This document shows, one piece after another, positions 16,603 through 53,781 of a stretch of 64,000 nt of DNA. Position 1 is the stretch's first letter, and every line of letters begins with the position of its first letter. The notes beneath the pieces were generated by a model. The model saw nothing but the letters and a program-made list of their open reading frames with translations, ran no database searches and was not told where the DNA came from. Position numbers and translations under genes: made by a program. The stretch comes from a virus. Location of the stretch: positions 64,001 to 128,000 of the IMG/VR virus record IMGVR_UViG_3300045973_000529; one strand, given 5' to 3'.

Positions 16603-16648
16603 CCGTTACAGACCCGTTCAACACGGGTTCAAGGTTCTGTGGTATAGT
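16603..16648 (+). promoter_or_regulatory. early/middle promoter: CCGTTACA box + TATAGT -10
   Basis: CCGTTACA 16603-16610, TATAGT 16643-16648, start of accessory cluster. Confidence 0.7.
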
Positions 16649-16679
16649 GCTCCTATGCACTTCCACAAGGACCTTTCCA

Positions 16680-16898
16680 ATGCTCACTGCTAGCCAAATC
16701 GCTGTCCTCAACGGCGTGATCTCTCGTCTCCAGGAATTGGTCAACATCAAACGGGACTCCGTCAGAGACCTGCTGCAGGTCTACACCGTCGGTGGTCACG
16801 ACGCCGAAGCCGCTCGGGTCCTCGCCGAGACCGAATCCATCGAAATCGCCCACATCGTCACCACCATCACGGAACTGCGCAACCTGCGCGGGAACTGA
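16680..16898 (+). CDS. hypothetical early protein
   Basis: AAGGA SD, ATG 16680. Confidence 0.75.
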   Translation: MLTASQIAVLNGVISRLQELVNIKRDSVRDLLQVYTVGGHDAEAARVLAETESIEIAHIVTTITELRNLRGN

Positions 16899-16899
16899 C

Positions 16900-17109
16900 A
16901 TGACCATCGAAACCAACGTACAAGCCACGCTCGAGTACCTGGATGCGGCCATCGATGCAGCGCATCGCGGCATCGCCTTGGTGCACCAGACGCTCGGAGC
17001 AGCCCGCAACAGCGATCAACGCAAGGGGTCCGAACTCGCGCTGGCCGTGGCAGAACGCCGCCTCGACGAGCTGAAGACGGTCCGCAAGCTGCTGACCAAG
17101 GTTGCCTGA
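16900..17109 (+). CDS. hypothetical helical protein
   Basis: ATG 1 nt after upstream stop; MTIETNVQATLEYL... Confidence 0.7.
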   Translation: MTIETNVQATLEYLDAAIDAAHRGIALVHQTLGAARNSDQRKGSELALAVAERRLDELKTVRKLLTKVA

Positions 17110-17111
17110 TC

Positions 17112-17435
17112 ATGTCTGAAGTCCTCGATCGTCAAGCCGCGATCCTCACGGCCGCCCGCCACGCTGGTGATCACATCGCCCGCGTCGTGCAGCTGCTCAT
17201 CGACGGTGTTGCCTTCCCGACGGACGGCAAGACCTACGAGGTCTTCAGTCACGAGGGTGACGAGCTCGGTTCCATCACTACCGCCGATCTTGGCTTCGCC
17301 ATCAACCTCATGCGTCGCATGGGCCGCGAACCTGGTAAGTGCAAGCACTACACCTACGACCCAGCCACGAAGACCTTCCCACCGACCTACCAACCAGCTT
17401 TCACTTTCGCGTGGGTTGGTTGGATCGGCCACTGA
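17112..17435 (+). CDS. hypothetical protein
   Basis: 107-aa ORF in tightly packed operon. Confidence 0.75.
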   Translation: MSEVLDRQAAILTAARHAGDHIARVVQLLIDGVAFPTDGKTYEVFSHEGDELGSITTADLGFAINLMRRMGREPGKCKHYTYDPATKTFPPTYQPAFTFAWVGWIGH

Positions 17436-17451
17436 ATCGCTAAGGACATCC

Positions 17452-18603
17452 ATGTTCCCGAACATCAAGCATCTCTCCGATCTGGTCCCGCACATCCAGG
17501 ACAACCCGCAGATCCGGGTGAAGGTCGAGCCGAATGGCTTCACCGTCGTGTGCTACATGCTGCAGGACGAGGACACCTTCTCGGGTGCCAACGCCGAGTT
17601 CGCAGCCGAGTGCCGCGGTATCACGTTCGACACGAACGGCAAGATCGCGGCTCGGACGCTGCACAAGTTCTTCAACGTCGGCCAGGAAGACAGCACCCGT
17701 CCCGAGGTGATCCGCTGGCAGGACGTCGTTCGCATCATGGACAAGCGTGACGGATCGATGATCACGCCGGTGCTGGTGAACGGCGGCGTGAAGTGCAAGA
17801 CCAAGAAGTCGTTCGACACCAAGGAAGCGGCCCTGGCCGACGAGATCCTGCACCAAATCGAAACCATCGATGGTGCCAAGGACCAGTTCAAGCTCGAATG
17901 GACGCGCAATCTGCTTCGCTTCGGCTACACGCCGACCTTCGAGATCACGTCACCGAAGTTGCCGATCGTGCTGCTGTACGACAAGGACGAACTGACCCTG
18001 CTGCATGTTCGCGAGAACGTGACCGGCCGGTACCTCGACGAAGACGAGGTGAAGGCGCTCGAGCCGCCGTTCCCGATCGTCGAGAACGTGATGCGGCAGT
18101 TCATGCGCCCAGGCGTGCCGGCCAATCTCGTGTCCTGGGACCTGCTCAAGACCGCGGCCGAGACGGCCGAAGGTGTCGAGGGCTGGGTGATCCAGTTCCG
18201 CAATGGCGATATGGTCAAGCTCAAGACGGCCTGGTACTGCGCGCTGCATCACTCGGTGACCTTCACCCGGTGGCGTGACATCGCTCGCTCGGTGGTTGCG
18301 GATCAGTCCGATGACCTGAAGGCGGCGTTCGCGATGACGGGCCGCTCGATCGAGCCGATCCTGTTCGTGGAACGCGCCATCAAGAACAAGATCGCGCTTG
18401 ACCGTGGAACGGCTGAAGTGCATGCACTTATCGGCACGCTGGGCAAGACGGCCAAGGACATGGCGCTCATGCACAAGGGCCATCCGCTGTTCGGCCAGAT
18501 CATGCGGCTGTTCCGTGGTCAGGAAGTGAACTGGATGGAGTTCTACGAGAAGAACCATCTCGACACCGACTGGTCGCTGGAAGTCGTGGGAGAAGAAGCA
18601 TGA
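17452..18603 (+). CDS. rnl1: T4 Rnl1-like RNA ligase
   Basis: ECRGI, HKFFNVG, motif I KRDGSMI, FEITSP..PIV, EGWVI, MVKLKTAWY; AAGGA SD before ATG 17452. Confidence 0.92.
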   Translation: MFPNIKHLSDLVPHIQDNPQIRVKVEPNGFTVVCYMLQDEDTFSGANAEFAAECRGITFDTNGKIAARTLHKFFNVGQEDSTRPEVIRWQDVVRIMDKRDGSMITPVLVNGGVKCKTKKSFDTKEAALADEILHQIETIDGAKDQFKLEWTRNLLRFGYTPTFEITSPKLPIVLLYDKDELTLLHVRENVTGRYLDEDEVKALEPPFPIVENVMRQFMRPGVPANLVSWDLLKTAAETAEGVEGWVIQFRNGDMVKLKTAWYCALHHSVTFTRWRDIARSVVADQSDDLKAAFAMTGRSIEPILFVERAIKNKIALDRGTAEVHALIGTLGKTAKDMALMHKGHPLFGQIMRLFRGQEVNWMEFYEKNHLDTDWSLEVVGEEA

Positions 18604-18929
18604 GCTATCGCGAACGCAGTCACTGGCTTCTCCTCACGCAGGAGGAGCTGAATGCCAAGCCGACTCGTGAGCTGCTCGCCATCCTGCAGTGGGCGCGGTA
18701 CGTGCCGAAGTGCTCTTGCGGTCAGATGCTCGGTGACTGCGACGGTGGCCTGACTGAGGACGAGCGCCAGCGCGTTCAACAGCGCTTCGCGCTGAAGATC
18801 CGTACCAAGACCGCGCTGAACACGCAGTACGACGGCGTCGTTCGCGGTCATGTCCCGGGTCGCGCCGAAGGCAAGAAGATCCGCCGTGATCGTCAAGCCC
18901 GCAAAGAACGCAAGCAATTGGAGTATTGA
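18600..18929 (+). CDS. hypothetical protein
   Basis: 109 aa, CSC...C cluster, basic C-terminus, ATGA overlap. Confidence 0.7.
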   Translation: MSYRERSHWLLLTQEELNAKPTRELLAILQWARYVPKCSCGQMLGDCDGGLTEDERQRVQQRFALKIRTKTALNTQYDGVVRGHVPGRAEGKKIRRDRQARKERKQLEY

Positions 18930-18930
18930 C

Positions 18931-19143
18931 ATGGCCTGCAACTGTCCCGATGCCGAGTGGCACTACACCTCTCGCTGCGCTGGTGCTCAACGACTGCCAG
19001 CGGCGCAGCCTGCGACGTACCAACCGGCTCGGCCGGCCGAGCCGCGACAAAACATGCTGGCCTGCAAGTGCCCAGATGCCGAATGGCACCACTACGGCTG
19101 CGCCTTGTCTGTGCAGCGCCACCCGTTCACCTTCAACGCGTGA
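18931..19143 (+). CDS. 70-aa protein with duplicated CxCPDAEWH...C motif
   Basis: MACNCPDAEWHYTSRC ... LACKCPDAEWHHYGC; GGAG SD. Confidence 0.75.
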   Translation: MACNCPDAEWHYTSRCAGAQRLPAAQPATYQPARPAEPRQNMLACKCPDAEWHHYGCALSVQRHPFTFNA

Positions 19144-19148
19144 AGATC

Positions 19149-19445
19149 ATGTCCGAATACACCATCACCCACGACACTGGCATGGAAATCTGGCGCGGCC
19201 AGGCGCCGTGTCCCGAGCAACTCCCGTACGCAGGTGATGTGCTCGAGGTCGTCAAACCGTTCTGGACGCTGGGCGAGTACCAGTACCTCGAAGGCGACAC
19301 GCTGACGCTCGAGCAGCGGACCCGCAAGGCACCCTTTGGCCGGTCCAGCTCGCTCGGGAATTGGATCGTCAAGGACAAGTACCAGACCTCGATCTGGACA
19401 AACATCGAGTGGATGCTGGCTGACGGCATCGTGAAGGTCAAGTGA
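19149..19445 (+). CDS. hypothetical protein
   Basis: MSEYTITHDTG..., 98 aa. Confidence 0.7.
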   Translation: MSEYTITHDTGMEIWRGQAPCPEQLPYAGDVLEVVKPFWTLGEYQYLEGDTLTLEQRTRKAPFGRSSSLGNWIVKDKYQTSIWTNIEWMLADGIVKVK

Positions 19446-19603
19446 TGATCACCGATTTCAGGGGCGTGGTCGATGACCTCTTCGAGTACCTGTACCGGCA
19501 GCGCGACGATTCGCTCCGTGCTGGCGACATGGCTGGGTACTCTGAAGCCGTCGACGCGCTGAATCTGCTTCGCGACATGGTCGCCAAGAACACAACATCA
19601 TGA
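19445..19603 (+). CDS. small hypothetical protein (52 aa)
   Basis: Read manually: MITDFRGVVDDLFEYLYRQ...; overlaps both neighbours by TGATG/ATGA. Confidence 0.65.
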   Translation: MITDFRGVVDDLFEYLYRQRDDSLRAGDMAGYSEAVDALNLLRDMVAKNTTS

Positions 19604-20013
19604 CCACCTTCAAGCACTACGAGCTGGGGTCGCTGAAAGTAGGTGCGCAGCTCGCGCTCTCGAATCGGCTCTACGTCTCTGGTTGGACGTTGTCGAATCT
19701 CTACCGCGACTTCGTCGACGGTTACAGGGCCGAGGGCTCGCAGATCGTGATCGCAAGCCATGGCTCAAATCCAGCAACCCCAGTCGCCCTGGCGCTGTAC
19801 TACGGGCGGGACCATCAGGTCATGGCTTTCACGCGTCAGTCATTCCGCCGTCAGGGGCTGGCGGTCGAGTGCGTCAAGCGACTGAAGAACCTCCCAGAGA
19901 ACGTCGTCGCTGGTGAAGGCATTGATGGCACGCTCGAGTTCTGGCAGAAGGCCGGCATCCCAGCCCACGCCCGCGACTACAACTTTTGGCCAAGAGGTCA
20001 TCGCTTCGAATAG
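19600..20013 (+). CDS. GNAT-like acetyltransferase
   Basis: MAFTRQSFRRQGLAVECV resembles acetyl-CoA binding motif A; LEFWQKAG resembles motif B. Confidence 0.6.
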   Translation: MTTFKHYELGSLKVGAQLALSNRLYVSGWTLSNLYRDFVDGYRAEGSQIVIASHGSNPATPVALALYYGRDHQVMAFTRQSFRRQGLAVECVKRLKNLPENVVAGEGIDGTLEFWQKAGIPAHARDYNFWPRGHRFE

Positions 20014-20037
20014 CGGTCGGCGACACCAGGAATGCAC

Positions 20038-20057
20038 CAGGGACCCTAGGGTCCCTG
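20038..20057. repeat. perfect 20-bp palindrome CAGGGACCCTAGGGTCCCTG
   Basis: Self-complementary; 18-bp core identical at 37293-37310. Confidence 0.9.
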
Positions 20058-20118
20058 AGTTGTTTGGTACTACACCGACACCTTCGAGTGTCGCCGGCCT
20101 GGAACTGTTACATCTGCT

Positions 20119-20143
20119 GAAGAAAGCGGGGCCGTAGCCCCAC
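20119..20143 (-). terminator. intrinsic terminator for phoH unit
   Basis: Minus strand GTGGGGC-TACG-GCCCCGC then TTTCTTC, 6 nt after the phoH stop. Confidence 0.7.
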
Positions 20144-20149
20144 TGAAAC

Positions 20150-20902
20150 TTACGCGCGACGGCGGACTTGGCCGCCAGCGGAGACGCGCTCTTCAGGCGC
20201 GTCGAGGTGCGTGAGGAGCTCACGCACGAGTTCAGAACGTTGGATGTCGCGATGGGTGAACTGGATCACCTGAATCATGCGTGACTTCCCAGCCAAGCGG
20301 CGCGTCAGCCACTCAAGGCCATTCTCGGCGATACCGCGAAGATCGCACTGAGAACCGTCGCCGTTCACGACGAATGTGCTGTAGTTGCCGGCACGTGTGA
20401 CGAAGAGCTTGATCTGCTCGATCGTCGTATTCTGTGCTTCGTCCAGAATCACGTACGAGTTGTTGAACGTTCGACCACGCATGTACGCGAGCGGCGCGAA
20501 CTCGATCTTGCCGCTGTCCATGAGCTTCTTGGCCATGGTAACGCCGACGAGCTCTTCAAGCGCGTCGAGCAGTGGGCGGAGATACGGACTGATCTTCTCT
20601 TCGAAGGTGCCTGGAAGGAACCCAAGGCTTTCACCTGCTTCGCAGACCGGGCGTGTCAGCACGATCTTGGAAACTTCATTGGACAGAAGCTTCTCAACGC
20701 CAACAGCCATGGCGAGGAAGGACTTACCGGAACCTGCAGGACCATCGCCAATCGTCAGCGGCATTTGGCGCAGCGACTCAAGGTAAAGTTCTTGTGCAAG
20801 TGATTTCGGTTGTGGAGTGAAGCGGAGTTTGATAACCTTTGGACCCTCTTGGGAAATCGGTTGTGGATACTTGTTTTCGCGGTTGAGAAGCTTACGACCC
20901 AT
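20150..20902 (-). CDS. phoH: PhoH family ATPase
   Basis: GPAGSGKS, LTRP, LGFLPG, PLAYMRGRT, ILDEAQN, GD.SQCD, IQRS motifs; AGGAGG SD. Confidence 0.97.
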   Translation of the reverse strand: MGRKLLNRENKYPQPISQEGPKVIKLRFTPQPKSLAQELYLESLRQMPLTIGDGPAGSGKSFLAMAVGVEKLLSNEVSKIVLTRPVCEAGESLGFLPGTFEEKISPYLRPLLDALEELVGVTMAKKLMDSGKIEFAPLAYMRGRTFNNSYVILDEAQNTTIEQIKLFVTRAGNYSTFVVNGDGSQCDLRGIAENGLEWLTRRLAGKSRMIQVIQFTHRDIQRSELVRELLTHLDAPEERVSAGGQVRRRA

Positions 20903-20931
20903 GTGATCCTCCTACAGGACTGGGTGATGGC

Positions 20932-21089
20932 GAACTCGTCAGAGCAGGAGGTTGGCCTCCTGATGGCGGGCGATAACAGACAAACGGGCCGGAGTAAAAG
21001 GCTGTGCGACGATTGTTCGCACCTGTTGTAGGGGTTGGCCCTCATCTGCCTCGAGAACGATGCAGGCTTGTTGCTGCACCGGGGAGTTC
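20932..21089 (-). ncRNA. candidate structured cis-regulatory RNA in the phoH leader
   Basis: Closing stem GAACTC/GAGTTC enclosing three helices; see findings. Confidence 0.45.
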
Positions 21090-21102
21090 CTTGTGTTGGA
21101 CA

Positions 21103-21486
21103 TTAGTCCTGCTTGTAGGTAACGAACTTCATCCAATCGACGACGTTCTGTTCCTTGTTGTGCAGCATGCACTCACCAGCGGCGAGGCAGTCCAACAGGT
21201 ACTGCGCGAGCTTCACATGCTCAGCGTCCTTCATTTTCAACAGCGCTTCCTTGACTGCGGCTGACGTGCTGTCATCACCGTAGTTCACAGGATCTTCCAT
21301 CTGGAGATCGGCGCTCTTCAAGCCGTTCTTGAAGAAGCCACTGACCTTCGCGAGGACAAACAGCTGATAGGGGTTCGTGACCTTGCCGGCACTGACAATT
21401 TCCTGCAGCGTGAGATCGACGAGACGTGGAGTGTGCGTTGGAGCACCGTACACGGTATCGCTTTCGATCAGTTGATGGAGTTTCAT
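21103..21486 (-). CDS. hypothetical late protein
   Basis: 127 aa, MKLHQLIES N-terminus, downstream of minus-strand late box. Confidence 0.8.
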   Translation of the reverse strand: MKLHQLIESDTVYGAPTHTPRLVDLTLQEIVSAGKVTNPYQLFVLAKVSGFFKNGLKSADLQMEDPVNYGDDSTSAAVKEALLKMKDAEHVKLAQYLLDCLAAGECMLHNKEQNVVDWMKFVTYKQD

Positions 21487-21514
21487 AGTGCTGCCGGTTA
21501 GGTTGACGATGTGC

Positions 21515-21520
21515 TATTTA
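21515..21520 (-). promoter_or_regulatory. late promoter box TAAATA (minus)
   Basis: gcTATTTAgc on plus strand. Confidence 0.7.
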
Positions 21521-21526
21521 GCCCCG

Positions 21527-21532
21527 TAAATA
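21527..21532 (+). promoter_or_regulatory. late promoter box TAAATA
   Basis: gTAAATAg, back-to-back with the minus box. Confidence 0.7.
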
Positions 21533-21553
21533 GGTTGTGCCAAGGAGAGAACC

Positions 21554-21775
21554 ATGTCCGAGACCTTTGTTGATCAGCCTACGAACCCTATTCCTCCGCC
21601 AGACACCTGGCATGAGCTATCGTATAACCAATTGCTCGATGCTAAGACCCAACTTATGAACAAGCTCTACCTGGCCCGCGGGAAGCCTCTGTACCTCAAA
21701 CCGCTGAATACGGCGCTTGAGCGCATCGAGGCCTTCATTGCAGCGAAGCTGCAAGATCCGCGCGGTTTGGGTTAA
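21554..21775 (+). CDS. hypothetical late protein
   Basis: AAGGAG SD, 73 aa. Confidence 0.8.
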   Translation: MSETFVDQPTNPIPPPDTWHELSYNQLLDAKTQLMNKLYLARGKPLYLKPLNTALERIEAFIAAKLQDPRGLG

Positions 21776-22026
21776 TGCGCCTTGTAAGTTTCGAGCATGC
21801 GCTCGAGCTGCGCGTGCAGGTTCACTAGATCGGCCGTCAGGCCCTTCGGAAGCTTTCGCTCCAGGACCTGCCCGATGAGGTAGTACGCCTCATCGATGAC
21901 ATCAGCCCAGTCTTGTTCGTCCATTTCATCAGGTGGAACGACATCCAGCAGATACATGTCGTGAACCTCGACTTTCTCGAGGAGCTCCTCGACTGTCGGT
22001 TCATTGGGCTCATTCTTGCTAGGCAT
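21772..22026 (-). CDS. hypothetical acidic protein
   Basis: 84 aa, converges on and overlaps the stop of the previous gene. Confidence 0.75.
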   Translation of the reverse strand: MPSKNEPNEPTVEELLEKVEVHDMYLLDVVPPDEMDEQDWADVIDEAYYLIGQVLERKLPKGLTADLVNLHAQLERMLETYKAH

Positions 22027-22049
22027 CCTGTTCCCCTTACACGTGGCAC

Positions 22050-22055
22050 TAAATA
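22050..22055 (+). promoter_or_regulatory. late promoter box TAAATA
   Basis: cTAAATAc upstream of structural gene 22126. Confidence 0.65.
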
Positions 22056-22095
22056 CGACAGCACCGTCAACCTAGACAGCCGACCGTGACGGAGC

Positions 22096-22101
22096 TATTT
22101 A
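22096..22101 (-). promoter_or_regulatory. late promoter box TAAATA (minus)
   Basis: gcTATTTAc, upstream of minus gene ending at 21772. Confidence 0.6.
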
Positions 22102-22125
22102 CCATCAGTCGGCGGAGGTATCACC

Positions 22126-24591: not shown

Positions 24592-24594
24592 CCT

Positions 24595-25530: not shown

Positions 25531-25593
25531 AGTTACAGATTTCTTGGACCGTTACACTTCCGTGGTTCTCGAACCCGAAACTCATGTTAAGAT
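25531..25593 (+). promoter_or_regulatory. early/middle promoter: tandem GTTACA boxes + CCCGA + TAAGAT
   Basis: GTTACA 25532 and 25551, CCCGA 25574, -10 at 25588-25593; near-identical layout at 30866. Confidence 0.75.
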
Positions 25594-25600
25594 GCCTGTC

Positions 25601-25966
25601 ATGAACACCCCTACCTTCTTCTTCGCAGCCACGGACATCGTGGTCACGGGTTCCAACCCCGAAAACGCGGACGTCACGAATCCTCGCGGCGAGTACTTCG
25701 GTTCCGCAGGTTACGTGGTCGCTGAGGACGCCGTCGGCAATCGCGTTCGCCTGCACATCAAGACCGAGCAACGCGATGCCGACGCTCTTGCCGCAGCCGG
25801 TCGCGTTGCCGATGCGCTGAACGCTCGCCTGGCTTCTGGCAAGCTGCCCGTCGCGTTCGATCGTTGGGAGGAAACCTTCCCCGCCTACGGCTCCGCTGCG
25901 TACGACCCGCAAGAAGAGATTGAATGGGAACGTCGCGTCGAAGAAGACGCCGCCTGGTGTCAGTGA
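25601..25966 (+). CDS. hypothetical early protein (likely leaderless)
   Basis: ATG 7 nt after the -10 box, no SD. Confidence 0.75.
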   Translation: MNTPTFFFAATDIVVTGSNPENADVTNPRGEYFGSAGYVVAEDAVGNRVRLHIKTEQRDADALAAAGRVADALNARLASGKLPVAFDRWEETFPAYGSAAYDPQEEIEWERRVEEDAAWCQ

Positions 25967-26673: not shown

Positions 26674-26711
26674 TGTAACGGTCAGCACACCGTCCCGAAC
26701 CGTGATAGAAT
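26674..26711 (+). promoter_or_regulatory. early/middle promoter: inverted box TGTAACGG + CCCGA + extended -10
   Basis: TGTAACGG 26674, CCCGA 26694, TGa-TAGAAT 26706-26711. Confidence 0.7.
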
Positions 26712-26732: not shown

Positions 26733-28013
26733 ATGTCACTGTTCAACGTTCCCCGTCTTCAACAATACCGTGCTCTCGGCTACAACGTCCTGCTGTCCGG
26801 CCATGCCGGCGTCGGCAAGACGGCCGTGATCACGAAGGTCTTCGAAGGGCTGAAGTGGAAGTACTTCAGTGCCCCGACGATGGACCCGTGGGTCGATCTC
26901 GTCGGCGTGCCGCATCCAGTCGACGACAAGGTGCGTGGTGGCAAGGTCCTCGAGCTCGTGCGCCCCGAGTTCATCAAGGCTGATGACATCGAGGCGATCT
27001 TCATCGATGAGCTGAACCGCGCACCGGACAAGGTGCTGAACGCGCTGATGGAGCTGATCCAGTTCGGGAGCATCAACGGCCTGAAGCTGAACAACCTCAA
27101 GATGATCTGGGCGGCCATCAACCCTGACGACGACGAGGGCGAATACGCGGTGAACAAGCTCGACCGCGCGCTCAAGGACCGCTTCCAAGTCCAGATCGAA
27201 GTGCCGTTCAAGCTCGACGAGGAATGGTTCAACGCCAAGTACCCCGACGTCGGTCCCGCGTTCTGCAGCTGGTGGAATGACCTGCCGTTGGACCTCAAGA
27301 AGGACATCTCGCCGCGCCGCCTCGATTACGCAGCGGAAGCGTACCTGAACGACTGCCATCTCGGCGATTTCCTGCCGGAACGCGCGAACATCGGCAAGCT
27401 CCGCCAGTCCATCAAGGCCGTGCCATTCGCCGAGCAGCTCGCCGCGATCAAGACCGAAGCCGAGGCCAGGAAGTTCCTGAGCTCCATCAACAACGCGACG
27501 CGACTGCTGCAGCTCGCAACGGCCAAGAACCCGCAGGCCGTCGAGTTCTTCAACAAGTTCCGCTCAGTCATGCCACAGGAACTCGTGGATGCGTTGACAC
27601 CCGCGGTTGCTGCAGCCGCCGCGAATGCGCGAGTCACGACGCTGGCCGAGCTGCTGCCCTCGATCGACAAGGCCGGAAAGCTCGGCGAAGTCGAGCTCAC
27701 GCATCTCTTCAACGAGCCGGCTTTCGTGTACCAAAGCGGCTCGCTCGAGGAGGACATCAAGCGCCAGGTGCGAATCGGTTCCGCGTCGTTCCGCAAGCTC
27801 GTGGGACACCTGAACCTCGTGCTCGGCAAGGCCGCCAAGCCGACGCTCGCCAAGGCCTGCCTGAAAGCCGATGGAACTCGCACGAATCTCGCGACGATCG
27901 CGATGCACATCGCAGCGCACGACACGACGTTCCAGTGGTTCTCGAAGGAAGAGCGCAAGAAGATCAACGCCCACACGTACCTCCATGGCGTTGCCGCAGC
28001 GAAGTGGATGTAA
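26733..28013 (+). CDS. MoxR-like AAA+ ATPase
   Basis: Walker A GHAGVGKT, Walker B IFIDELNRA, sensor AAINP, LDRALKDRF, ISPRRL. Confidence 0.9.
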   Translation: MSLFNVPRLQQYRALGYNVLLSGHAGVGKTAVITKVFEGLKWKYFSAPTMDPWVDLVGVPHPVDDKVRGGKVLELVRPEFIKADDIEAIFIDELNRAPDKVLNALMELIQFGSINGLKLNNLKMIWAAINPDDDEGEYAVNKLDRALKDRFQVQIEVPFKLDEEWFNAKYPDVGPAFCSWWNDLPLDLKKDISPRRLDYAAEAYLNDCHLGDFLPERANIGKLRQSIKAVPFAEQLAAIKTEAEARKFLSSINNATRLLQLATAKNPQAVEFFNKFRSVMPQELVDALTPAVAAAAANARVTTLAELLPSIDKAGKLGEVELTHLFNEPAFVYQSGSLEEDIKRQVRIGSASFRKLVGHLNLVLGKAAKPTLAKACLKADGTRTNLATIAMHIAAHDTTFQWFSKEERKKINAHTYLHGVAAAKWM

Positions 28014-28047
28014 CGCTCAGCCCAAGCCTTCGGGCTTGGGATAGAAT
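28009..28047 (+). promoter_or_regulatory. promoter (TGTAAC ... TAGAAT) with embedded UUCG hairpin
   Basis: TGTAAC 28009, CCCAAGCC-TTCG-GGCTTGGG 28021-28040, TAGAAT 28042-28047. Confidence 0.65.
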
Positions 28048-28053
28048 GTCTCT

Positions 28054-28272
28054 ATGAACGCCGAAACCATCCTCACCGCCGCCTTCCTGTCGCTTCTCAA
28101 CGCCGAGGAACAACAGCTCGTTTGTGATCGCATGCGCCACGGGTACGCGCTCTTCGACGCTGGTGAAGCCGAAGCCTGGCTGCGCCGGATCCTCGACGAG
28201 AAGCTGCATCTGAGCGTCAGCTACTCTGGCTTCTACAGCGGCCAGAACATTCCGGCCCCCTGCCTGCGCTGA
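28054..28272 (+). CDS. hypothetical protein (likely leaderless)
   Basis: ATG 6 nt after the -10 box, no SD. Confidence 0.7.
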   Translation: MNAETILTAAFLSLLNAEEQQLVCDRMRHGYALFDAGEAEAWLRRILDEKLHLSVSYSGFYSGQNIPAPCLR

Positions 28273-30865: not shown

Positions 30866-30928
30866 AGTTACAGATCTCTGGAACCGTTACACTCTCCGGC
30901 AGTTTTCTGGCCGAAACCGGGTTATAGT
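30866..30928 (+). promoter_or_regulatory. early/middle promoter: tandem GTTACA boxes + CCGA + TATAGT
   Basis: GTTACA 30867 and 30886 (19-nt period, as at 25532/25551), TATAGT 30923-30928. Confidence 0.75.
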
Positions 30929-30961: not shown

Positions 30962-31963
30962 ATGTCCAATACCTGCCAAGTCGCGTTCAACCAAGTCCTC
31001 GGTCGCTGGGAAGCGAACTTCAACGGCCGCACGCTGGCCTCGTCGAAGGACCCGGTCGGCGGCCCCGAGTATCTGAAGCGCGTCATCGAAGGCGGCTTCA
31101 GCAACAAGGCCAAGAACCTGAACGTCACGAAGTGCAACGTTATCGGCGGCCCGGTTCTGAACGCCGTCACCGCGACTCTCGAAGCTGCCGAGCCCGAAGC
31201 GCCGGTCGTGACGCTGGAAAGCGAATTCAGCATCAACGAGCGCTTCGACATCATGGTGGACTACGCCGACATGGTCGCCAAGCGCGAACTCGCTTCGGCC
31301 CTGGTCACTGGCGACGGCGGTCTCGGCAAGACCTTCACAGTCATGAAGACCCTCCGCGCCAGCGGCCTGCAGGATGTCAGCAAGATGGACATCGGCGCCA
31401 AGTTCGATGGCCAACGCGGTTACGTCGTCGTTAAGGGCTACAGCACTGCCAAGGGTCTCTTCCGCACGCTGTACGAAAACCGCAACCAAATCATCGTGTT
31501 CGACGACTGCGACAGCGTCCTGAAGGACCCGACCGCCGTGAACATCCTGAAGGCCGCGCTCGACAGCTACGACGTTCGCATGGTCACCTGGAACGCCGAA
31601 GGCTGGGGCAGCGACGAGGATCTCCCCAAGAGCTTCGAGTTCACTGGTGGTGTGATCTTCATCAGCAACATGCCGAAGCACAAGGTGCCGTCGCCGATTC
31701 GCAGTCGCGCTATGAGTGCTGACGTGAGCATGACCCGCCTCGAAGTCATCGAACGCATGCGCATGATCGTGGCGTCGCCCGAGTTCATGCCCGAGTTCGA
31801 TGACGAGCACAAGCTCGAAGCGCTCGAGTTCGTCGCCGACAACGCGAACCACCCGCTCGTTCCGACGCTGAATCTCCGCTCGCTCGTGAACGTCGTCAAG
31901 GCCCGCGCCGCGAAGCCCGACACGTGGCGCCGCCTGGCTCTGTACTCGATGGCCAACGCCTAA
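30962..31963 (+). CDS. P-loop ATPase (AAA-like, phage type)
   Basis: ALVTGDGGLGKT Walker A, IIVFDDCD Walker B, NILKAALDS, IRSR. Confidence 0.85.
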   Translation: MSNTCQVAFNQVLGRWEANFNGRTLASSKDPVGGPEYLKRVIEGGFSNKAKNLNVTKCNVIGGPVLNAVTATLEAAEPEAPVVTLESEFSINERFDIMVDYADMVAKRELASALVTGDGGLGKTFTVMKTLRASGLQDVSKMDIGAKFDGQRGYVVVKGYSTAKGLFRTLYENRNQIIVFDDCDSVLKDPTAVNILKAALDSYDVRMVTWNAEGWGSDEDLPKSFEFTGGVIFISNMPKHKVPSPIRSRAMSADVSMTRLEVIERMRMIVASPEFMPEFDDEHKLEALEFVADNANHPLVPTLNLRSLVNVVKARAAKPDTWRRLALYSMANA

Positions 31964-35171: not shown

Positions 35172-36047
35172 ATGTCACAAACCGACAAGACCACGCTTGG
35201 CGACCGCATGAAGTCGTATGAGCAACCCACCACCTCGCGCAAGGCCTTCAAGGGCCAGCCGATCATCGCTCGCCTCGATGGCAAGAGCTTCCACACCTTC
35301 TGCAAGGGCCTCAAGCGCCCGTTCGACGAGCGGCTGTCGCAGCTGATGGTGATCGTCATGAAGGAACTCGTTGATCGGTACCAAGCCGTCGTTGGGTACA
35401 CGCAGTCCGACGAGATCACGCTCATGTGGTACACCGCGGCCGACTCGCAGCAGGACTACCCGTTCGACGGCCGGATCCAGAAGCTTGAGAGCCTGCTCGC
35501 TGCGTTCGCCACGGCCGTGTTCAACAAGCACCTCGCCGAGTTCCTTCCCGAGAAGGCGGACCTCCTGCCGATCTTCGACTGCCGCGCCTTCGTCGTGCCA
35601 AACAAGCAAGAAGCCTATCACGCCTTCCTGTGGCGTCAGCAGGACGCGACCAAGAACGCCATCAGCATGGCAGCCCAATCGATGTTCACGCACAAGTCAC
35701 TGCAGGGCCTGCACGGCCCTGAGATGCAGGAAAAGATGTGGAAGGAAAAGGGCGTGAACTTCAACGACTACCCGCCGTTCTTCAAGCGCGGAACTTTCGC
35801 TCGTCGTGCCAAGGTCCGTCGTCAGATGACGGACATGGATTTCGAACGCATCCCCGAGAGCTACCGTCCGGCTGATGGCATGATCGAGCGGACCGAGATC
35901 CAGGCCTTCGACTGCTGGCTGTCACGCGAAGAAGATCCAGTGGCTGTGCTGTTCGATGGCCAGACCCCTGGCATCGAGAAGAAGGCTTGGGTGCCTGGAA
36001 CTGGCAACTTCGCTGACTCTCGCGAGTCGTACCTGAACCACTCCTGA
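35172..36047 (+). CDS. tRNA(His) guanylyltransferase Thg1-like
   Basis: RLDGKSFHTF, GYTQSDEITL, FDGRIQKL, FDCR, WRQQDATKNA, FKRGT motifs. Confidence 0.93.
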   Translation: MSQTDKTTLGDRMKSYEQPTTSRKAFKGQPIIARLDGKSFHTFCKGLKRPFDERLSQLMVIVMKELVDRYQAVVGYTQSDEITLMWYTAADSQQDYPFDGRIQKLESLLAAFATAVFNKHLAEFLPEKADLLPIFDCRAFVVPNKQEAYHAFLWRQQDATKNAISMAAQSMFTHKSLQGLHGPEMQEKMWKEKGVNFNDYPPFFKRGTFARRAKVRRQMTDMDFERIPESYRPADGMIERTEIQAFDCWLSREEDPVAVLFDGQTPGIEKKAWVPGTGNFADSRESYLNHS

Positions 36048-36267: not shown

Positions 36268-36312
36268 CCGTTACACTTCTCTGGTGTTCTGATCCCGAGG
36301 TTGTGTTATGAT
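36268..36312 (+). promoter_or_regulatory. early/middle promoter: CCGTTACA + CCCGA + extended -10
   Basis: GTTACA 36270, CCCGA 36294, TGT-TATGAT 36307-36312; 24-nt stretch nearly identical to 53760-53783. Confidence 0.78.
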
Positions 36313-36338
36313 GCCATCATACCAACCTCGGAGCCATT

Positions 36339-42926: not shown

Positions 42927-42938
42927 CCCAAACCCAGG

Positions 42939-42968
42939 TTGTCACTTTCTGGGTCGTATTGCTACAAT
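42939..42968 (+). promoter_or_regulatory. sigma70-like promoter
   Basis: TTGTCA-18 nt-TACAAT. Confidence 0.7.
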
Positions 42969-42973
42969 AGCGT

Positions 42974-43291
42974 ATGACTTGGAAACTTTACCTCGACGAT
43001 CTGCGCGCGCCACCCGATCAAACTTGGGTGGTGGCCAGATCCGTGCCAGCTGCCTGGCACCACATCTGCACGTACGGGCTGCCACTCGAAATGAGCCTTG
43101 ATCACGATCTTGGCACTGACACCGACGCCCCTGTACTGCTGCACTCCTTTATCGAAGCGTACCTCGACCGTGAGGAAGACAGGCGATTCGAGGGCGTCCG
43201 CAACATCAAGTTCAAAGTTCATTCTGCAAACCCCACGGGCGCGCGGAACATGGAGCTGCTTTGGGCGAATTTTCTGAGGTGTACTGAATGA
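42974..43291 (+). CDS. cyclic-phosphate processing receiver-like domain protein
   Basis: KLYLDDLRAPP..W..ARS...SLDHDLG...KVHSANPTGARNM pattern. Confidence 0.8.
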   Translation: MTWKLYLDDLRAPPDQTWVVARSVPAAWHHICTYGLPLEMSLDHDLGTDTDAPVLLHSFIEAYLDREEDRRFEGVRNIKFKVHSANPTGARNMELLWANFLRCTE

Positions 43292-45865: not shown

Positions 45866-45891
45866 CCCAGTCCCTTGCTTGGGACGCCTCT

Positions 45892-45912
45892 CGTTACAGT
45901 TGGTTGTACAAT
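45892..45912 (+). promoter_or_regulatory. promoter upstream of replication genes
   Basis: CGTTACA 45892-45898 and TG-TACAAT 45907-45912. Confidence 0.55.
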
Positions 45913-45944
45913 GACGTTACGACTTACCAACCACAGAGGTGCAC

Positions 45945-49502: not shown

Positions 49503-49511
49503 CCAATTTGT

Positions 49512-49517
49512 TACAAT
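49512..49517 (+). promoter_or_regulatory. -10 box TACAAT
   Basis: tGTTACAAT, 6 nt before ATG 49524. Confidence 0.55.
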
Positions 49518-49523
49518 TACATC

Positions 49524-50246
49524 ATGAAACTTACACCCTCAGACATCTTGAAGATCCGTGGTGCGTTGATCGCAGCACGAACCGCTGGCATCAACTCGGT
49601 CGTGATCACGAACGGGTACGTGGCTGGCGTCCATGAGAAGCACATCGCTGCGATCTTCAGTGCGTTGGCACTTGATCTCGACCCCGCCATCAGCATTGGC
49701 CTTGCAAAGCTCACTGACCTGGAGAAGCGACTTTCGCTCTTCGGTGAGATTGAAGTCGAGGGCGAGGTGAACGCGAACCAGAAGATGTGCAAGCTTGCGA
49801 TCCGCGGCAAGGGTGGCAAGATCGACTATCGCTGCAGCGATGAGCGACTGATCACGTACCCCAAGTCGAACAGCGACGAGCCAGGCATCGTGGTCACGAT
49901 CTCGAAGCCAGAGATTGCGCTCCTTTCGAAGGGGGCCAAGACCCTCAGTGCTGAGCACCTGACCTTGCAGGTCAAGCGTGACGGCACCGTGCACTTCGAG
50001 TGCCACGACACCAATCAAGACGAGTTCCAGACGGATCTCGAAGCTCAAGCTGAGTTCGTCGATGAGGTGTACCCCTATGTGAACCCGTTCGACGTGTCAT
50101 CGGGCGGAGTGTTCCTTGCACTCCTCGAGCACATGGTGAAGGACGCTGACACCGCGCAGCTGGTGGTGATGAAGACCGGCAACATCAGCCTACAAGTACA
50201 CGGACACGAAGTGTTCGCTGTCCCAAGAATCCAACATGGAGAATGA
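49524..50246 (+). CDS. probable sliding clamp (T4 gp45-like)
   Basis: 240 aa next to the polymerase; KIDYRCSDERLITYPK...VTISKPEIALL..GAKTL resembles gp45 TIFWPAADPSTVVAP...EIKAEDLQQLL..SRGL; inference. Confidence 0.6.
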   Translation: MKLTPSDILKIRGALIAARTAGINSVVITNGYVAGVHEKHIAAIFSALALDLDPAISIGLAKLTDLEKRLSLFGEIEVEGEVNANQKMCKLAIRGKGGKIDYRCSDERLITYPKSNSDEPGIVVTISKPEIALLSKGAKTLSAEHLTLQVKRDGTVHFECHDTNQDEFQTDLEAQAEFVDEVYPYVNPFDVSSGGVFLALLEHMVKDADTAQLVVMKTGNISLQVHGHEVFAVPRIQHGE

Positions 50247-50610
50247 CATGGATGACATCGAAAAGAGTCGCGTGGACTACGTGACACGCCTGGAAACGCA
50301 GCTGCAACATGCGCAGTCAGAGCTGGCCAATTACCGTGCAATCGCTGAGAAGTGGCAGCCGGTGCTGCACTCGGAAATCAGCACCGCCGACAAGCAAGCT
50401 CGCTTCACGTTGTCCTTCGGTGGCAAGCGTTCAACGGCCACGGTGCCGTTCAACACGATGCTGCAGTCCGATGCATTGACCCTGGCCTCGGCCGTTGTTG
50501 ATGCGCTGGTGCAGAGCAACGTGCAAGACCGGCTCCGCGAACAAGTACTGCCTGAAGTGCAGCGACTGCTGCCGTCGATCAGTACCATCAACGGCGCGGG
50601 GCAGTGGTGA
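50236..50610 (+). CDS. hypothetical protein
   Basis: 124 aa, coiled-coil N-terminus. Confidence 0.75.
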   Translation: MENDMDDIEKSRVDYVTRLETQLQHAQSELANYRAIAEKWQPVLHSEISTADKQARFTLSFGGKRSTATVPFNTMLQSDALTLASAVVDALVQSNVQDRLREQVLPEVQRLLPSISTINGAGQW

Positions 50611-50963
50611 TGAAGTGGCTCAAGAAACTGTTCGGGACGCGTGAGCTGACCGATGCTGAGCAGCTCTTGAGCACTCGTGACGCGTTCATGGCTTCGCAAG
50701 AGGGGACTGAAACCCCATGGGCCATGTTCGAAGTCATGGGGTTCGAGGCGAACGGCCAGATCCGCGTTGAGTTCAACTGGAACGACGCATTCATCAAGCG
50801 TATCAACGAGCTCGGCTTCCAGGCTGAGACTGCTGAAGACGCCGTGCAGTTGTTCTTCTATGCCAGTCAGATGAAGCCAACTGAACTTTCGGGCGGTGAT
50901 GATGCGGTGCAAGCCGATCAGACCCCGCATCTGAGTGCCCCAGCAAACAGGATCGTCGTATGA
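50610..50963 (+). CDS. hypothetical protein
   Basis: KWLKKLFG...PWA...FNWNDAFI...LGF; TGATG overlap. Confidence 0.8.
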   Translation: MKWLKKLFGTRELTDAEQLLSTRDAFMASQEGTETPWAMFEVMGFEANGQIRVEFNWNDAFIKRINELGFQAETAEDAVQLFFYASQMKPTELSGGDDAVQADQTPHLSAPANRIVV

Positions 50964-51997
50964 AACGCCTCGTGATTGACACCTCAAATCTCTTCTGGCG
51001 TGCCGTCTCCGCTCAACAGCGGTACGGTCCAGCAGATGCAGGCGACTCAGCCGGTCTTGGGCTGCATATGTCACTGATGTCGATGCGCAAGCATTGGAAC
51101 CACATTCAGCCGGACAAGTTGGCCGTTGTGTTCGAAGGCAAGGACAACTGGCGCAAGAAGTACACCCGCTCCGAAGAGTGCTACTCCAAGCGGCTGTACA
51201 AGGGCAATCGCGTCGCTGACCCCGGCATGGCGGTGTTGTTCGACGTCATGAAGGCGTTCGAAGACCTCGTTCGTGAGCACACGAACATCGTGACGCTTCA
51301 GCACCCAGAGCTCGAGGGCGATGACTTGATCGGTGGGTACGCCCAGCACTTCAGCGCATTGGGTGACGATGTCACGATCCTGTCGGGCGACAAGGACTTC
51401 GTGCAACTCCTCGGTGGCGATGGTCGCATCAGGCTCGTGAATCCGGACGACGGCAAGGAGCGGACCCTGACTGGTGTCTGCGAAGTCGACGACCCTGGGT
51501 ACTTCATGTTCGAGAAGTGCATGCGCGGCGACTCAGGCGACAACGTGCTGCCTGCCTTCCCGCGAGTCCGGAAGACGAAGCTGTACAAGGCCTATGGAGT
51601 CAAGGACGGCAAGGTGGATCCGGCACTGGCTGACTCGTTCGAGATGAGCAACCTGCTGAACAGTCAGTGGGAGTTCATTGACCCTGAGTCTGGTGACAAG
51701 CGCATGATGTCAGTCGAGAAGATGTTCGAAGAGAACCATCTCCTCATGAACCTTGCAGGTCAGCCAGCACACGTTCGCGAGAAGATCACGCAAGTGATTG
51801 AGCACGAGAGCGAGCACCATGGGTCCTTCAACTTCTTCAAGTTCAACGCGTTCCTCGGCAAGTACGAACTGAAGCAGATCGCTGAGCGTGCCAGTGACTT
51901 CGTGCCAATGTTCAGTGGCAAGCTGCCACAGGGCGAGACTGCGGCGCAGTCCAAGGTCAAGCGTCTGGCGGACAAGCTGTCAGGGTTCAACTTCTGA
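50960..51997 (+). CDS. rnh: T4 RNase H-like 5'-3' exonuclease
   Basis: VIDTSN, VFEG..NWRK, YKGNR, EGDDLIG, ILSGDKDF, GDSGDNV motifs. Confidence 0.93.
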   Translation: MKRLVIDTSNLFWRAVSAQQRYGPADAGDSAGLGLHMSLMSMRKHWNHIQPDKLAVVFEGKDNWRKKYTRSEECYSKRLYKGNRVADPGMAVLFDVMKAFEDLVREHTNIVTLQHPELEGDDLIGGYAQHFSALGDDVTILSGDKDFVQLLGGDGRIRLVNPDDGKERTLTGVCEVDDPGYFMFEKCMRGDSGDNVLPAFPRVRKTKLYKAYGVKDGKVDPALADSFEMSNLLNSQWEFIDPESGDKRMMSVEKMFEENHLLMNLAGQPAHVREKITQVIEHESEHHGSFNFFKFNAFLGKYELKQIAERASDFVPMFSGKLPQGETAAQSKVKRLADKLSGFNF

Positions 51998-52015
51998 CGA
52001 TCAATCTCTCCTTGC

Positions 52016-52021
52016 TAAATA
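52016..52021 (+). promoter_or_regulatory. late promoter box TAAATA
   Basis: gcTAAATAg immediately after an anti-SD tract. Confidence 0.7.
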
Positions 52022-52109
52022 GGTTGCGGCTTCGTCCGCAACAAAGGGTTCGGGAAGACGTGTTGTCCTACCGGTAAATCGTTCACGATCACCCGCAAGG
52101 AGAGAAAAC

Positions 52110-52535
52110 ATGGCACAGAACACAATCGAAAAGCGCGCGACCGATCTCAAGCACGTTTGGCTCATCGACTGGAACGATGACGGACTGCTGAAGGAAATCG
52201 CGGTTGTGATGGAAACGCAGGACGGTACGCTCTTCGGGATCGAAGTCGACAAGCTGCATCCGATCGACAAGGCGCGTCTGAAGAAGGTCATCACATCGGT
52301 CCACGCCGACAAGTACCCGCTCTGGGAACTGCTGTCACAAGGTCGTCTGAACAACGGCCTGAACGCACTGGACTTCTTCCACCAGAACTACGTCAAGGTC
52401 AAGCGTCCTCGTGGCGCCGTGATCGGCGGCGGTCTCGCCTCCGTTCAGTTGGATCTCGACGACGGTCGCCAAATCGGCTCGTCATTCAGCAACCCGCGTG
52501 GTGCTGTGACGGCAGGTGAAGCACCGAAGATGTAA
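52110..52535 (+). CDS. hypothetical late protein
   Basis: AAGGAG SD; LIDWNDDG...IDKARLKK...YPLWELLSQ...NALDFFH. Confidence 0.85.
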   Translation: MAQNTIEKRATDLKHVWLIDWNDDGLLKEIAVVMETQDGTLFGIEVDKLHPIDKARLKKVITSVHADKYPLWELLSQGRLNNGLNALDFFHQNYVKVKRPRGAVIGGGLASVQLDLDDGRQIGSSFSNPRGAVTAGEAPKM

Positions 52536-52558
52536 GATCAGAACGATCGACCATTGGC

Positions 52559-52582
52559 AAGGGTCGCTTCGGCGACCCTTTT
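52559..52582 (+). terminator. intrinsic terminator, UUCG loop
   Basis: AAGGGTCGC-TTCG-GCGACCCTT TT. Confidence 0.9.
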
Positions 52583-52633
52583 CGGCCTCCGGGCCTCTGA
52601 CACAGAAAGGACTTCCCGAGTAGTAGCACGCTC

Positions 52634-52641
52634 TGTATAAT
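52634..52641 (+). promoter_or_regulatory. -10 box TATAAT
   Basis: ctg-TATAAT 52636-52641 after terminator; no clear -35. Confidence 0.6.
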
Positions 52642-52711
52642 GCGCCTACCTCTGACCAATAGCCAGACGGAGCGGTTTACGCCCGCCAACTAACACTAAG
52701 GAGTATCCACA

Positions 52712-53350
52712 ATGTATAAGATCCATGCAACCCTCGCGGTTGTTCTAGCTCTTGTTTGCACCGCAGTTTTCAAGCTCGAAGTCTTGATGCCATCACCGAC
52801 GGCGAACGTCGTCATGGCCGAGAAGTCGACTACCGTCATGGGAGGCCAAGTCGCGGTGCTTGTCCCAAATGATCTGACCACATCTCAGCACCAGATCCTG
52901 AACAGGGCGTACGTGCAAGCGAAGGCCGATGGTCACCCGAATCCTGAGATCGTTCAGGGCGTTCTCCTTCAGGAGTCCAAGGCCGGTGGCATGGGTTCGT
53001 ACAAGGTTGCTGGGAACAAGGGTGACGAGTACTTCGGTCTCGGTCAGCTCAAGCTCGGCGCGACGCGCGAGGTCATGAGCACGTTCCCAGCACTCTGGAC
53101 GAAGTACGCGTTCCACACACGGACCGACGACGAGCTGAAGGCGAACTTGATTCTGAACCCGACCTTCAACATCGAGATCACCTCCAAGTACCTGCGGATC
53201 CTGCAGACCAAGTACGGGTTCAAGGGTCGTGAGCTGATGAATGCGTACAACCGCGGACCAGGTGGTGTAAAATTGGTCGGTGCCGATTACGGCTATGCAC
53301 TCAGTGCTGAGGCGAAGCTCGCCACCGCACGTCGTCAAGGAAAGCTATGA
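52712..53350 (+). CDS. lytic transglycosylase (SLT-like) with N-terminal membrane segment
   Basis: GVLLQESKAG catalytic Glu, YFGLGQLK, NIEITSKYL, NAYNRGPG; hydrophobic N-terminus. Confidence 0.85.
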   Translation: MYKIHATLAVVLALVCTAVFKLEVLMPSPTANVVMAEKSTTVMGGQVAVLVPNDLTTSQHQILNRAYVQAKADGHPNPEIVQGVLLQESKAGGMGSYKVAGNKGDEYFGLGQLKLGATREVMSTFPALWTKYAFHTRTDDELKANLILNPTFNIEITSKYLRILQTKYGFKGRELMNAYNRGPGGVKLVGADYGYALSAEAKLATARRQGKL

Positions 53351-53748
53351 CCAAGTTCGTTCCGAAAAGCACTGAAGTCGAGGTTGTCACCAAGTGCCGG
53401 GCCTGTGATGGGACCGGACAGAGCAATGGCGAAACTTGCCAGATCTGCGACGGTGAAGGTGTCGTGCCGTACCTTGCACCTCGCTCGATCTTCGCCATGT
53501 CGCCTGAAGAGCGGAAGGCGATCATGGAGGCCAATCCTCCTGAGGTCACCTGCATTCACGGAGCCAATGCGTACTTCGACTGGTCGTGGATGGGCTGTGG
53601 GCACGGTCAGCTTTCGTTCTCGGTCGACAGCTTCGGTCACATCACCTGCATGGATGAGCACATGGGCCGTGACCGCGTTCGCACGCTGCTGCATGCACTG
53701 GCCGATCACATCGCTGACAACGCGGTGCTGGACGGCGACGAGGTGTAA
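53347..53748 (+). CDS. protein with DnaJ-type zinc finger repeats
   Basis: CRACDGTG and CQICDGEG (CxxCxGxG x2). Confidence 0.75.
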   Translation: MTKFVPKSTEVEVVTKCRACDGTGQSNGETCQICDGEGVVPYLAPRSIFAMSPEERKAIMEANPPEVTCIHGANAYFDWSWMGCGHGQLSFSVDSFGHITCMDEHMGRDRVRTLLHALADHIADNAVLDGDEV

Positions 53749-53781
53749 CGGTTCTCCACGATCCCGAGATCGTGTTATGAT
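53744..53781 (+). promoter_or_regulatory. early/middle promoter: inverted box TGTAACGG + CCCGA + extended -10
   Basis: TGTAACGG 53744, CCCGA 53763, TGT-TATGAT 53776-53781. Confidence 0.78.

Follow-up and report, generated by a model that had tools for sequence, protein, structure and literature searches.

We identified a short DNA box, CCGTTACA, as a promoter-linked element that stands at a fixed distance from the -10 of a class of promoters in an uncultured giant phage. The stretch analysed, hereafter the window, comprises bases 64001-128000 (64,000 nucleotides) of the IMG/VR contig IMGVR_UViG_3300045973_000529, which is linear, 190,499 bp long, 57% GC and about 52% complete; positions are those of the window unless they are marked as contig or assigned to another genome. 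The contig encodes a T4-family DNA polymerase, whose closest cultured relative is that of Ralstonia phage RsoM2USA (49% identity), as well as giant virion proteins, and its late promoters are T4-like (TAAATAg); this combination indicates that the source is an uncultured giant T4-related phage. A sequence-only reading of the window had proposed a three-part early promoter in which the box, in either orientation, is pinned 32-33 nt upstream of the -10. For comparison, two pattern scans of IMG/VR, one with the promoter architecture and a second with GTTACAGATTnGTnGTGTAC, recovered related contigs of 5-336 kb. The relatives compared (G001-G004, G006 and G008; the window's contig is G000) are uncultured giant phages with GC contents of 45-59%, and G001 is 98% complete.

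The box is held at a fixed distance from the -10

The box occurs eight times in the window against 0.91 expected, and none of 100 shuffles reached this number. Among 7-mers enriched in intergenic over coding DNA of the contig, CGTTACA ranks third, below two versions of the late-promoter word, and 20 of its 28 contig copies fall in the ~5% of the DNA that is intergenic by our crude gene calls (233 genes, 96% coding). We then measured distances to the -10. The contig contains 51 copies of the 6-mers GTTACA/TGTAAC; 12 forward copies lie 31-33 nt, and seven reverse copies 32-33 nt, before TA[N][AG][AG]T (TAnRRT), where the expectation is 0.044 per distance. When 45 intergenic -10 candidates upstream of contig genes were taken as the starting point, the forward box stood at the fixed spacing in eight and the reverse box in five. 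Pooled over seven related genomes, the 7-mers gave 36 forward sites versus 0.89 expected (p ~1e-44) and seven reverse sites versus 0.59 (p ~3e-6), and the window's contig alone gave five reverse 7-mer sites versus 0.05 (p ~2e-9). Chance is excluded as the source of the association between box and -10.

All seven box/-10 pairs that had been proposed for the window (Table 1) are present, and each distance and sub-motif, when re-checked, was as described. Between the pinned end of the box and the -10 the distance is 32 nt in five pairs and 33 nt in two; at five sites CCCGA (GCCGA at 30910) precedes the -10 by 7-9 nt; a second GTTACA is found upstream of two boxes (AGTTACAGAT at 25531 and 30866); and the near-identical stretches 36291-36314 and 53760-53783 share 22 of their 24 bases. 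Every one of the seven sites has a TAnRRT -10, with a TGn extension at four to five of them. The positional enrichment on which the proposal hangs extends over the whole contig and is seen in its relatives too.

The box tops a cassette that resembles T4 early promoters

The cassette consists of the box, a T4-like -35 in many copies, a CGGGAT-like spacer motif and a TGn-extended TAnRAT -10. The extended form of the box reads ACCGTTACA, followed in relatives by GATTnGT, and fuller copies occur in the contig outside the window, for example CGTTACA-N8-GTGTAC-N4-CTCGGG-N7-TAAGAT. The earlier statement that these promoters have no good -35 holds only in part: GTGTAC (T4 early consensus GTTTAC) lies 17 nt before the -10 in six contig forward promoters and in most of those in relatives, and (G/T/A)TGTAC is found at 17-18 nt in 6 of the 12 contig forward matches, but the hexamer is degenerate at the window's forward sites and absent from its reverse sites. 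Since many copies carry GTGTAC, the promoter has more parts than the three first proposed. The box itself is ruled out as a -35 element, since 31 nt separate it from the -10 and a GTGTAC stands at 17 nt in many of the promoters. Nor does it suit as the -10 or -35 hexamer of another promoter farther upstream, for which the spacings of 11-15 nt do not fit.

The box spans about -51 to -44, where T4 early promoters carry an A/T-rich UP element. Such an element is not present at -40 to -60 here; CCGTTACA occupies the position instead. A BLAST search of a relative's cassette against cultured phages matched the T4-type core only. The match is an intergenic Dhakavirus early promoter, GTTTAC-N17-TACTAT-acacCTATCAAC, in Escherichia phage UGJNEcP3 (OV876907.1, segment L042 301-344), which is 77% identical to the relative's cassette core over 44 nt. 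It shares the core and the first transcribed bases, acacCTATCgAC, and has an upstream T-rich tract in the place of the box. This degree of identity with a promoter of a T4-type coliphage suggests that the core cassette may be very old.

The forward box is conserved and the reverse form is labile

Forward boxes at 31-33 nt were found at 12 sites in G001 (0.54 expected per distance) and at 11 in G008, versus 0 for a control pattern; G009 has seven, G006 three, G003, G002 and G010 two each, and G004 and G005 one each. When a logo was anchored on the box, the box scored as high as the -10 does in a logo anchored on the -10, making it the best-conserved part upstream of the -10, and it extended to CGTTACAGATTnGT in relatives. 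At the promoter of the ATPase gene at 30962, whose orthologues encode proteins 63-78% identical across four genomes, an alignment of the four promoters (A1) shows no change in either GTTAC core while neighbouring bases vary; in the G001 orthologue the proximal box lies 43 nt from the -10, versus 32 nt here, one turn farther. By these comparisons, the forward box is conserved across this clade of giant phages. Cassettes are missing at orthologous junctions in G006 and G008, and in RsoM2USA only two of seven GTGTAC/TTGTAC-type promoters have the box. The two box cassettes of RsoM2USA lie at 186184-186226 (+ strand) and 103169-103210 (- strand) of its record. A pattern scan of bacterial genomes gave a single match, in a contig of a Syntrophaceae metagenome-assembled genome, which lacked a correctly placed -10 and was taken as chance.

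The reverse sites read TGTAACGGT, the exact reverse complement of the extended forward word, and are therefore the same element inverted and not a chance 6-mer. The intergenic gaps that hold them range from 40 to 63 nt, with the distance from box to -10 constant at 32-33 nt. Occurrence in both orientations at a fixed distance from the -10, together with the variable intergenic length, argues against an RNA-level signal and for reading at the level of DNA. The claim that the ACA/TGT end is pinned in both orientations is borne out in this genome by the 12 forward and seven reverse contig sites. Reverse sites number three in G009, two in G008, one in G003 and none in G006, and the three in G001 compare with ~1 expected. 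In the G006 orthologue of the 26733 gene the reverse box has been lost and a degenerate forward box, CCGTTTCA, lies at 28 nt. At 28009, TGTAA is in part the conserved Met-stop of the upstream gene, and G006 is without the 33-nt stretch containing the box and hairpin; the 53744 promoter is entirely absent at the orthologous G008 junction. Four of the five strong reverse sites overlap the end of the preceding gene, which has its stop codon in the TAA of TGTAAC. Orientation independence, as originally proposed, is thus significant in this genome, but it is backed by few sites in relatives and is near chance in G001. Being significant here and rare or lost elsewhere, orientation freedom looks real but minor, and evolutionarily labile.

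Allowed positions are about one helical turn apart

Forward boxes pooled over the genomes peak at 21-22 nt (11 sites), 31-33 nt (36) and 50-54 nt (nine) before the -10, with 0.30 expected per distance, and a position at 42-43 nt is represented by single cases and weakly supported. Reverse boxes, measured from the first T, peak at 21, 32-33 and 54 nt; further reverse peaks at 16 and 45 nt are the inverted partners of the -10-embedded GTTACAAT and of the forward box, respectively. Since forward and reverse peaks share an end, we conclude that the ACA/TGT end is pinned and that the allowed positions are about one helical turn apart. Extra copies spaced by about one turn are the pattern expected of a protein acting from one face of the DNA, and the positions relative to the core promoter recur every ~10-11 bp, the phasing typical of activators.

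Boxes also form clusters, either as direct repeats with periods of 9, 11-12 and 18-20 nt or as inverted TGTAAC...GTTACA pairs of variable spacing, both well above expectation. Tandem repeats of 11 nt (GTTACAGATTA in G001) occur in single promoters (G001 129540, contig 25249); periods of 9, 12 and 18-20 nt and inverted pairs are as common. The full palindrome CCGTTAC-N-GTAACGG was found at no promoter in seven genomes. The idea that the box is one arm of a palindromic dimer site, with the pinned base at its centre, was therefore rejected; sequence at the position of the other half-site is dissimilar, and relatives conserve GATTnGT there.

Two further promoter groups were seen alongside these. 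G008 contains eleven promoters with the box 21-22 nt before TACAAT (-10s at 82664, 123382, 225590, 234181, 244442, 252216, 269616, 286546 and 330558, among others), many of them with an inverted TGTAACGG 9-11 nt farther upstream. Many box-less promoters in three genomes, most of them with a TACAAT -10, have a second upstream motif at 37-41 nt, which consists of a stop codon and ACCYRAA (TGAACCCAAA, TAACCTGAAA; for example, at the gene ends in window 42927-42973 and 45866-45944). A G001 reverse peak at 40-42 nt turned out to be this different motif and not an inverted box.

What might read the box

From the observed enrichment, spacing, phasing, conservation and occurrence in both orientations we infer protein binding, positive action and contact with the alpha subunit of RNA polymerase. 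In this model CCGTTACA would be the upstream element of a repeated cassette read by the main (sigma70-type) RNA polymerase of the host. A sequence-specific DNA-binding protein, phage-encoded or delivered with the virion, would sit on the box and help the polymerase, probably through the alpha subunit and its flexible C-terminal domain. Protein and alpha domain would be neighbours on the DNA, one on each side of the pinned base pair and in an interchangeable order, which would explain the mirror geometry, with the box flipped about its ACA end. The model would also account for the ACA end at 32 nt from the -10 and for the extra boxes at about 21, 43 and 52 nt. We consider the chances roughly balanced that the polymerase is assisted in this way, by a sequence-specific protein that is bound to the box, acts from one helix face and has the alpha C-terminal domain as its likely partner.

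Several observations weigh against this model. The -35 of box promoters is not clearly weaker than that of box-less candidates, which are a noisy comparison set. Some boxes, which overlap or abut the -10 (GTTACAAT; TGTAACG-N9-TACAAT) or lie just before start codons, would suit a repressor better, and the reverse form is poorly conserved. Finally, no binding protein was found in Pfam searches of the contig, G001 and G006, nor among the ten most basic of 101 small proteins that the box-rich G001 and G008 share and RsoM2USA lacks; these ten had no significant Pfam match, and two weak matches were below curated cut-offs. One of the 101, encoded at G001 14719-15060 (113 aa, pI 10.5), has a promoter with three boxes.

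The searches covered several kinds of candidate. Six-frame Pfam searches of the contig, G001 and G006 gave no OmpR-type winged helix, receiver, sigma70 region 4, HTH_3, HU/IHF or LytTR domain, PF00486 and PF00072 had no match in the phages, and PF09114, of the MotA/AsiA set, had none in G000, G001 or G006. The AsiA and MotA C-terminal-domain models (between them PF09158 and PF09010) had no match in the ~52%-complete contig, the only genome in which they were searched. Pfam and PHROGs searches on 20 small basic or box-adjacent contig proteins (PHROGs on the first ten) revealed no DNA-binding candidate, and those conserved contig proteins that are small and basic are either ordinary enzymes or without family. 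One ESM Atlas look-up for a shared small protein was blank. The 105-aa open reading frame (ORF) at 42974-43291 was rejected as the box reader: it carries a cREC_REC domain (cyclic-phosphate-processing receiver, E 8e-17), is not a DNA binder and has no PF00072/Response_reg match. The contig has a thymidylate-synthase-family gene besides thyA, and the cytosines of the phage are probably modified; if so, a host factor would be less likely to read a word that contains C.

An unlikely alternative is that the host polymerase reads the box directly, either as a clade-specific UP stand-in contacted by the C-terminal domains of alpha, which the phage may first ADP-ribosylate as T4 does with Alt, or through an extra sigma contact. 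The box lies exactly in the UP place of an otherwise homologous T4-type early cassette, GTTACA resembles -35-type hexamers (TTTACA, T4 GTTTAC), and the failure of the Pfam searches to find a phage DNA-binding protein fits this explanation as well. The pinned positions, at about -33, -44, -54 and -64 relative to the start, would also suit alpha-domain sites placed turn by turn. However, established alpha-domain sites are A/T tracts contacted in the minor groove, not a G+C-containing 8-9-mer, the box is unchanged in phages of 45-59% GC with presumably different hosts, and the cultured RsoM2USA has it in only 2/7 of its GTGTAC/TTGTAC-type promoters.

TF1 represses SPO1 early promoters, and by analogy the box could be the operator of a phage repressor whose role would be to turn these promoters off, or to adjust them, as infection proceeds, a possibility that we rate lower again. 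Inverted pairs of the form TGTAAC(G)-N0-12-(C)GTTACA are over-represented (within 30 nt, 21 versus ~6 in G001 and 7 versus 0.6 in the contig), with a perfect 23-bp palindrome at contig 169560-169582; several promoters have a box within the spacer or overlapping the -10, and box pairs stand right before the ATG of both thymidylate-synthase-family genes. Yet the commonest position, with the box end at ~-44 and outside the core promoter, and the phasing are typical of activation and not of occlusion. The inverted pairs differ in their spacing, which is not what a rigid dimer operator would show, and the absence of CCGTTAC-N-GTAACGG from all promoters also speaks against it.

Least probable is a box with no transcriptional function, conserved by descent as the passenger of a mobile, PeSL-like promoter/stem-loop cassette that recombination would spread, or as the arm of a terminator hairpin: cassettes are near-identical within a genome (the 22/24 match of 36291-36314 and 53760-53783), are present or absent at orthologous junctions as are the promoter/stem-loop cassettes of T4-like phages (PMC4122927), and have strong hairpins inside or beside several copies, but the box is invariant in orthologous promoters while adjacent cassette bases change, keeps its distance to the -10 in both orientations despite unrelated flanks and recurs at multiples of a helical turn, and most forward boxes have no complementary arm nearby.

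Individual sites in the window

Table 1. Location of boxes, -10 elements and downstream genes at nine sites of the window
Feature	Position	Strand	Elements	Pinned end/start of -10	Distance (nt)	Downstream
Forward-box promoter	16603..16648	+	CCGTTACA 16603-16610; TGg-TATAGT -10 16643-16648	16610/16643	33	small ORFs and RNA-ligase gene 17167-18603 (Pfam RNA_lig_T4_1)
Two-box forward promoter	25532..25593	+	distal GTTACA 25532-25537; proximal CCGTTACA 25549-25556; TGt-TAAGAT -10 25588-25593	25556/25588	32	ATG at 25601
Reverse-box promoter	26674..26711	+	TGTAACGG 26674-26681; TGa-TAGAAT -10 26706-26711	26674/26706	32	AAA (MoxR-like) ATPase gene 26733-28013
Reverse-box promoter	28009..28047	+	7/8 match TGTAACGC 28009-28016; TAGAAT -10 28042-28047	28009/28042	33	ATG at 28054
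Two-box forward promoter	30867..30928	+	distal GTTACA 30867-30872; proximal CCGTTACA 30884-30891; TATAGT -10 30923-30928	30891/30923	32	AAA ATPase gene 30962-31963
Forward-box promoter	36268..36331	+	CCGTTACA 36268-36275 right after TGA stop; TGt-TATGAT -10 36307-36312	36275/36307	32	
Reverse-box promoter	53744..53781	+	TGTAACGG 53744-53751; TGt-TATGAT -10 53776-53781	53744/53776	32	ORF 53808-54188
Box pair without linked -10	1118..1153	+	inverted repeat TTGTAAC 1118-1124 / CCGTTACAA 1145-1153			thymidylate synthase gene thyA 1162-2118
Forward box before late promoter	54810..54855	+	box 54810-54817; TAAATA 54850-54855		33	3028-aa virion-protein gene

The boxes of the 25532 promoter are retained upstream of the orthologues in G006, G001 and G008. 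Its ATG is 7 nt downstream of the -10 at 25588 and opens a leaderless candidate of 121 codons. At 28009 the ATPase gene terminates at the TAA within the box, the next ATG follows the -10 by six nt, and a GC hairpin (28021-28040, 8 bp, UUCG loop) lies inside the spacer between the reverse box and the -10. The 53744 box likewise contains the stop codon of the upstream gene, with a 7-bp hairpin at 53757-53774 in the spacer. Both hairpins are probably 3' hairpins of the upstream transcripts.

Close ATGs recur: in 7 of 17 box promoters the -10 is followed at 5-7 nt by an ATG that opens an ORF of 72-696 codons. These leaderless mRNA candidates leave no space for a ribosome-binding site and often start with ATGAAC (window 25588-25603 and 28042-28056; contig -10s at 424, 55009, 55785, 166938 and 169528). 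The G008 promoters with the box at 21 nt repeat the pattern.

At 36268, a 9-bp inverted repeat, 36295-36303 (CCGAGGTTG) and 36323-36331 (CAACCTCGG), surrounds the -10 and extends into a GGAG ribosome-binding site. The fold predicted for 36295-36331 has -21.3 kcal/mol and a z of -3.5. The site is predicted to be hidden in read-through RNA and exposed in RNA started at this promoter, an arrangement that we take to be a translational lock of the T4 lysozyme type. Longer inverted repeats of 12-13 bp flank the -10 in the G001 promoters at 81529 and 269895.

The box pair at 1118-1153 ends 9 nt before the ATG of thyA. A second TTGTAAC...GTTACAA repeat (contig 35693-35726) lies 9-10 nt before the ATG of a dCMP-hydroxymethylase-like gene (contig 35736). 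Both genes belong to the thymidylate-synthase family, and the arrangement suggests shared control by the same box. The forward box before the late promoter at 54850 is isolated: no other late promoter in four genomes has one, and no general link of the box to late TAAATA promoters was found.

Significance and relation to known systems

The kind of element described here, a phage promoter with an accessory upstream site, is already known; the variant is new, and the proposed activator reading is plausible. T4 is the model for phage takeover of the host polymerase. As far as we are aware, its middle switch (MotA/AsiA) is missing from many relatives. It is possible, and we put it forward tentatively, that this MotA-less giant T4-related clade has its own polymerase-steering factor, or a retargeted alpha, which would read ACCGTTACA on DNA with probably sugar-modified hydroxymethylcytosine, from one face, at about -33/-44/-54/-64 and with tolerance of inversion. 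We know of no bacterial activator for which an asymmetric site can be inverted about a pinned base pair. In these very large, uncultured T4 relatives the box sets apart a second class of host-type promoters, and it offers a precise DNA bait with which the factor behind it could be sought. The cassette is also a compact regulatory part of defined position, and one by which the clade can be recognised and annotated in metagenomes.

A literature text search for the motif strings returned unrelated primers only. Class I/II sites of the CRP type and tandem OmpR/PhoB sites share with the box a position upstream of or abutting the -35, helical phasing and, in part, tandem direct repeats. GTTACA also resembles OmpR/RstA half-sites. 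The sites here differ in having no full palindromes and a variable repeat spacing, and no OmpR-type domain was found in the phages.

PeSLs are repeated early-promoter/stem-loop cassettes of T4-like phages (PMC4122927, PMC2839356). As here, well-conserved early-promoter cassettes are repeated between accessory genes, often with a stem-loop, and their presence varies among relatives. In the descriptions of PeSLs consulted, no sequence-specific box is reported that would stand upstream of the -35 at a constant distance. In addition, the hairpins here occur in some copies only and lie within the spacer or around the -10, whereas PeSL stem-loops are upstream.

T4 middle promoters share with the present ones a phage-specific box and a good sigma70 -10, often with TGn, and some copies here have a weak or missing -35. 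Their MotA box, (a/t)(a/t)(a/t)TGCTTtA, is a different word and takes the place of the -35, at 12+/-1 nt from the -10 (PMC2988021). The present box is separated from the -10 by 31 nt and lies upstream of the -35 position, so that both word and distance rule it out as a MotA box.

The closest likeness is to T4 early promoters, which combine UP, -35, TGn and -10 elements with extra consensus positions (PMC2988021). Both types are suited to a host sigma70 polymerase, with an extended -10, GT(T/G)TAC as the -35 at 17 nt and conserved positions beyond the standard elements. They differ in that T4 has an A/T-rich UP element, whereas here a G+C-containing word, which can be inverted and repeated, is used, and several window copies are without a -35-like hexamer. 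The comparison with T4 thus indicates that the box is neither a -35 nor a MotA box, and that it stands in the UP position of a T4-type early cassette.

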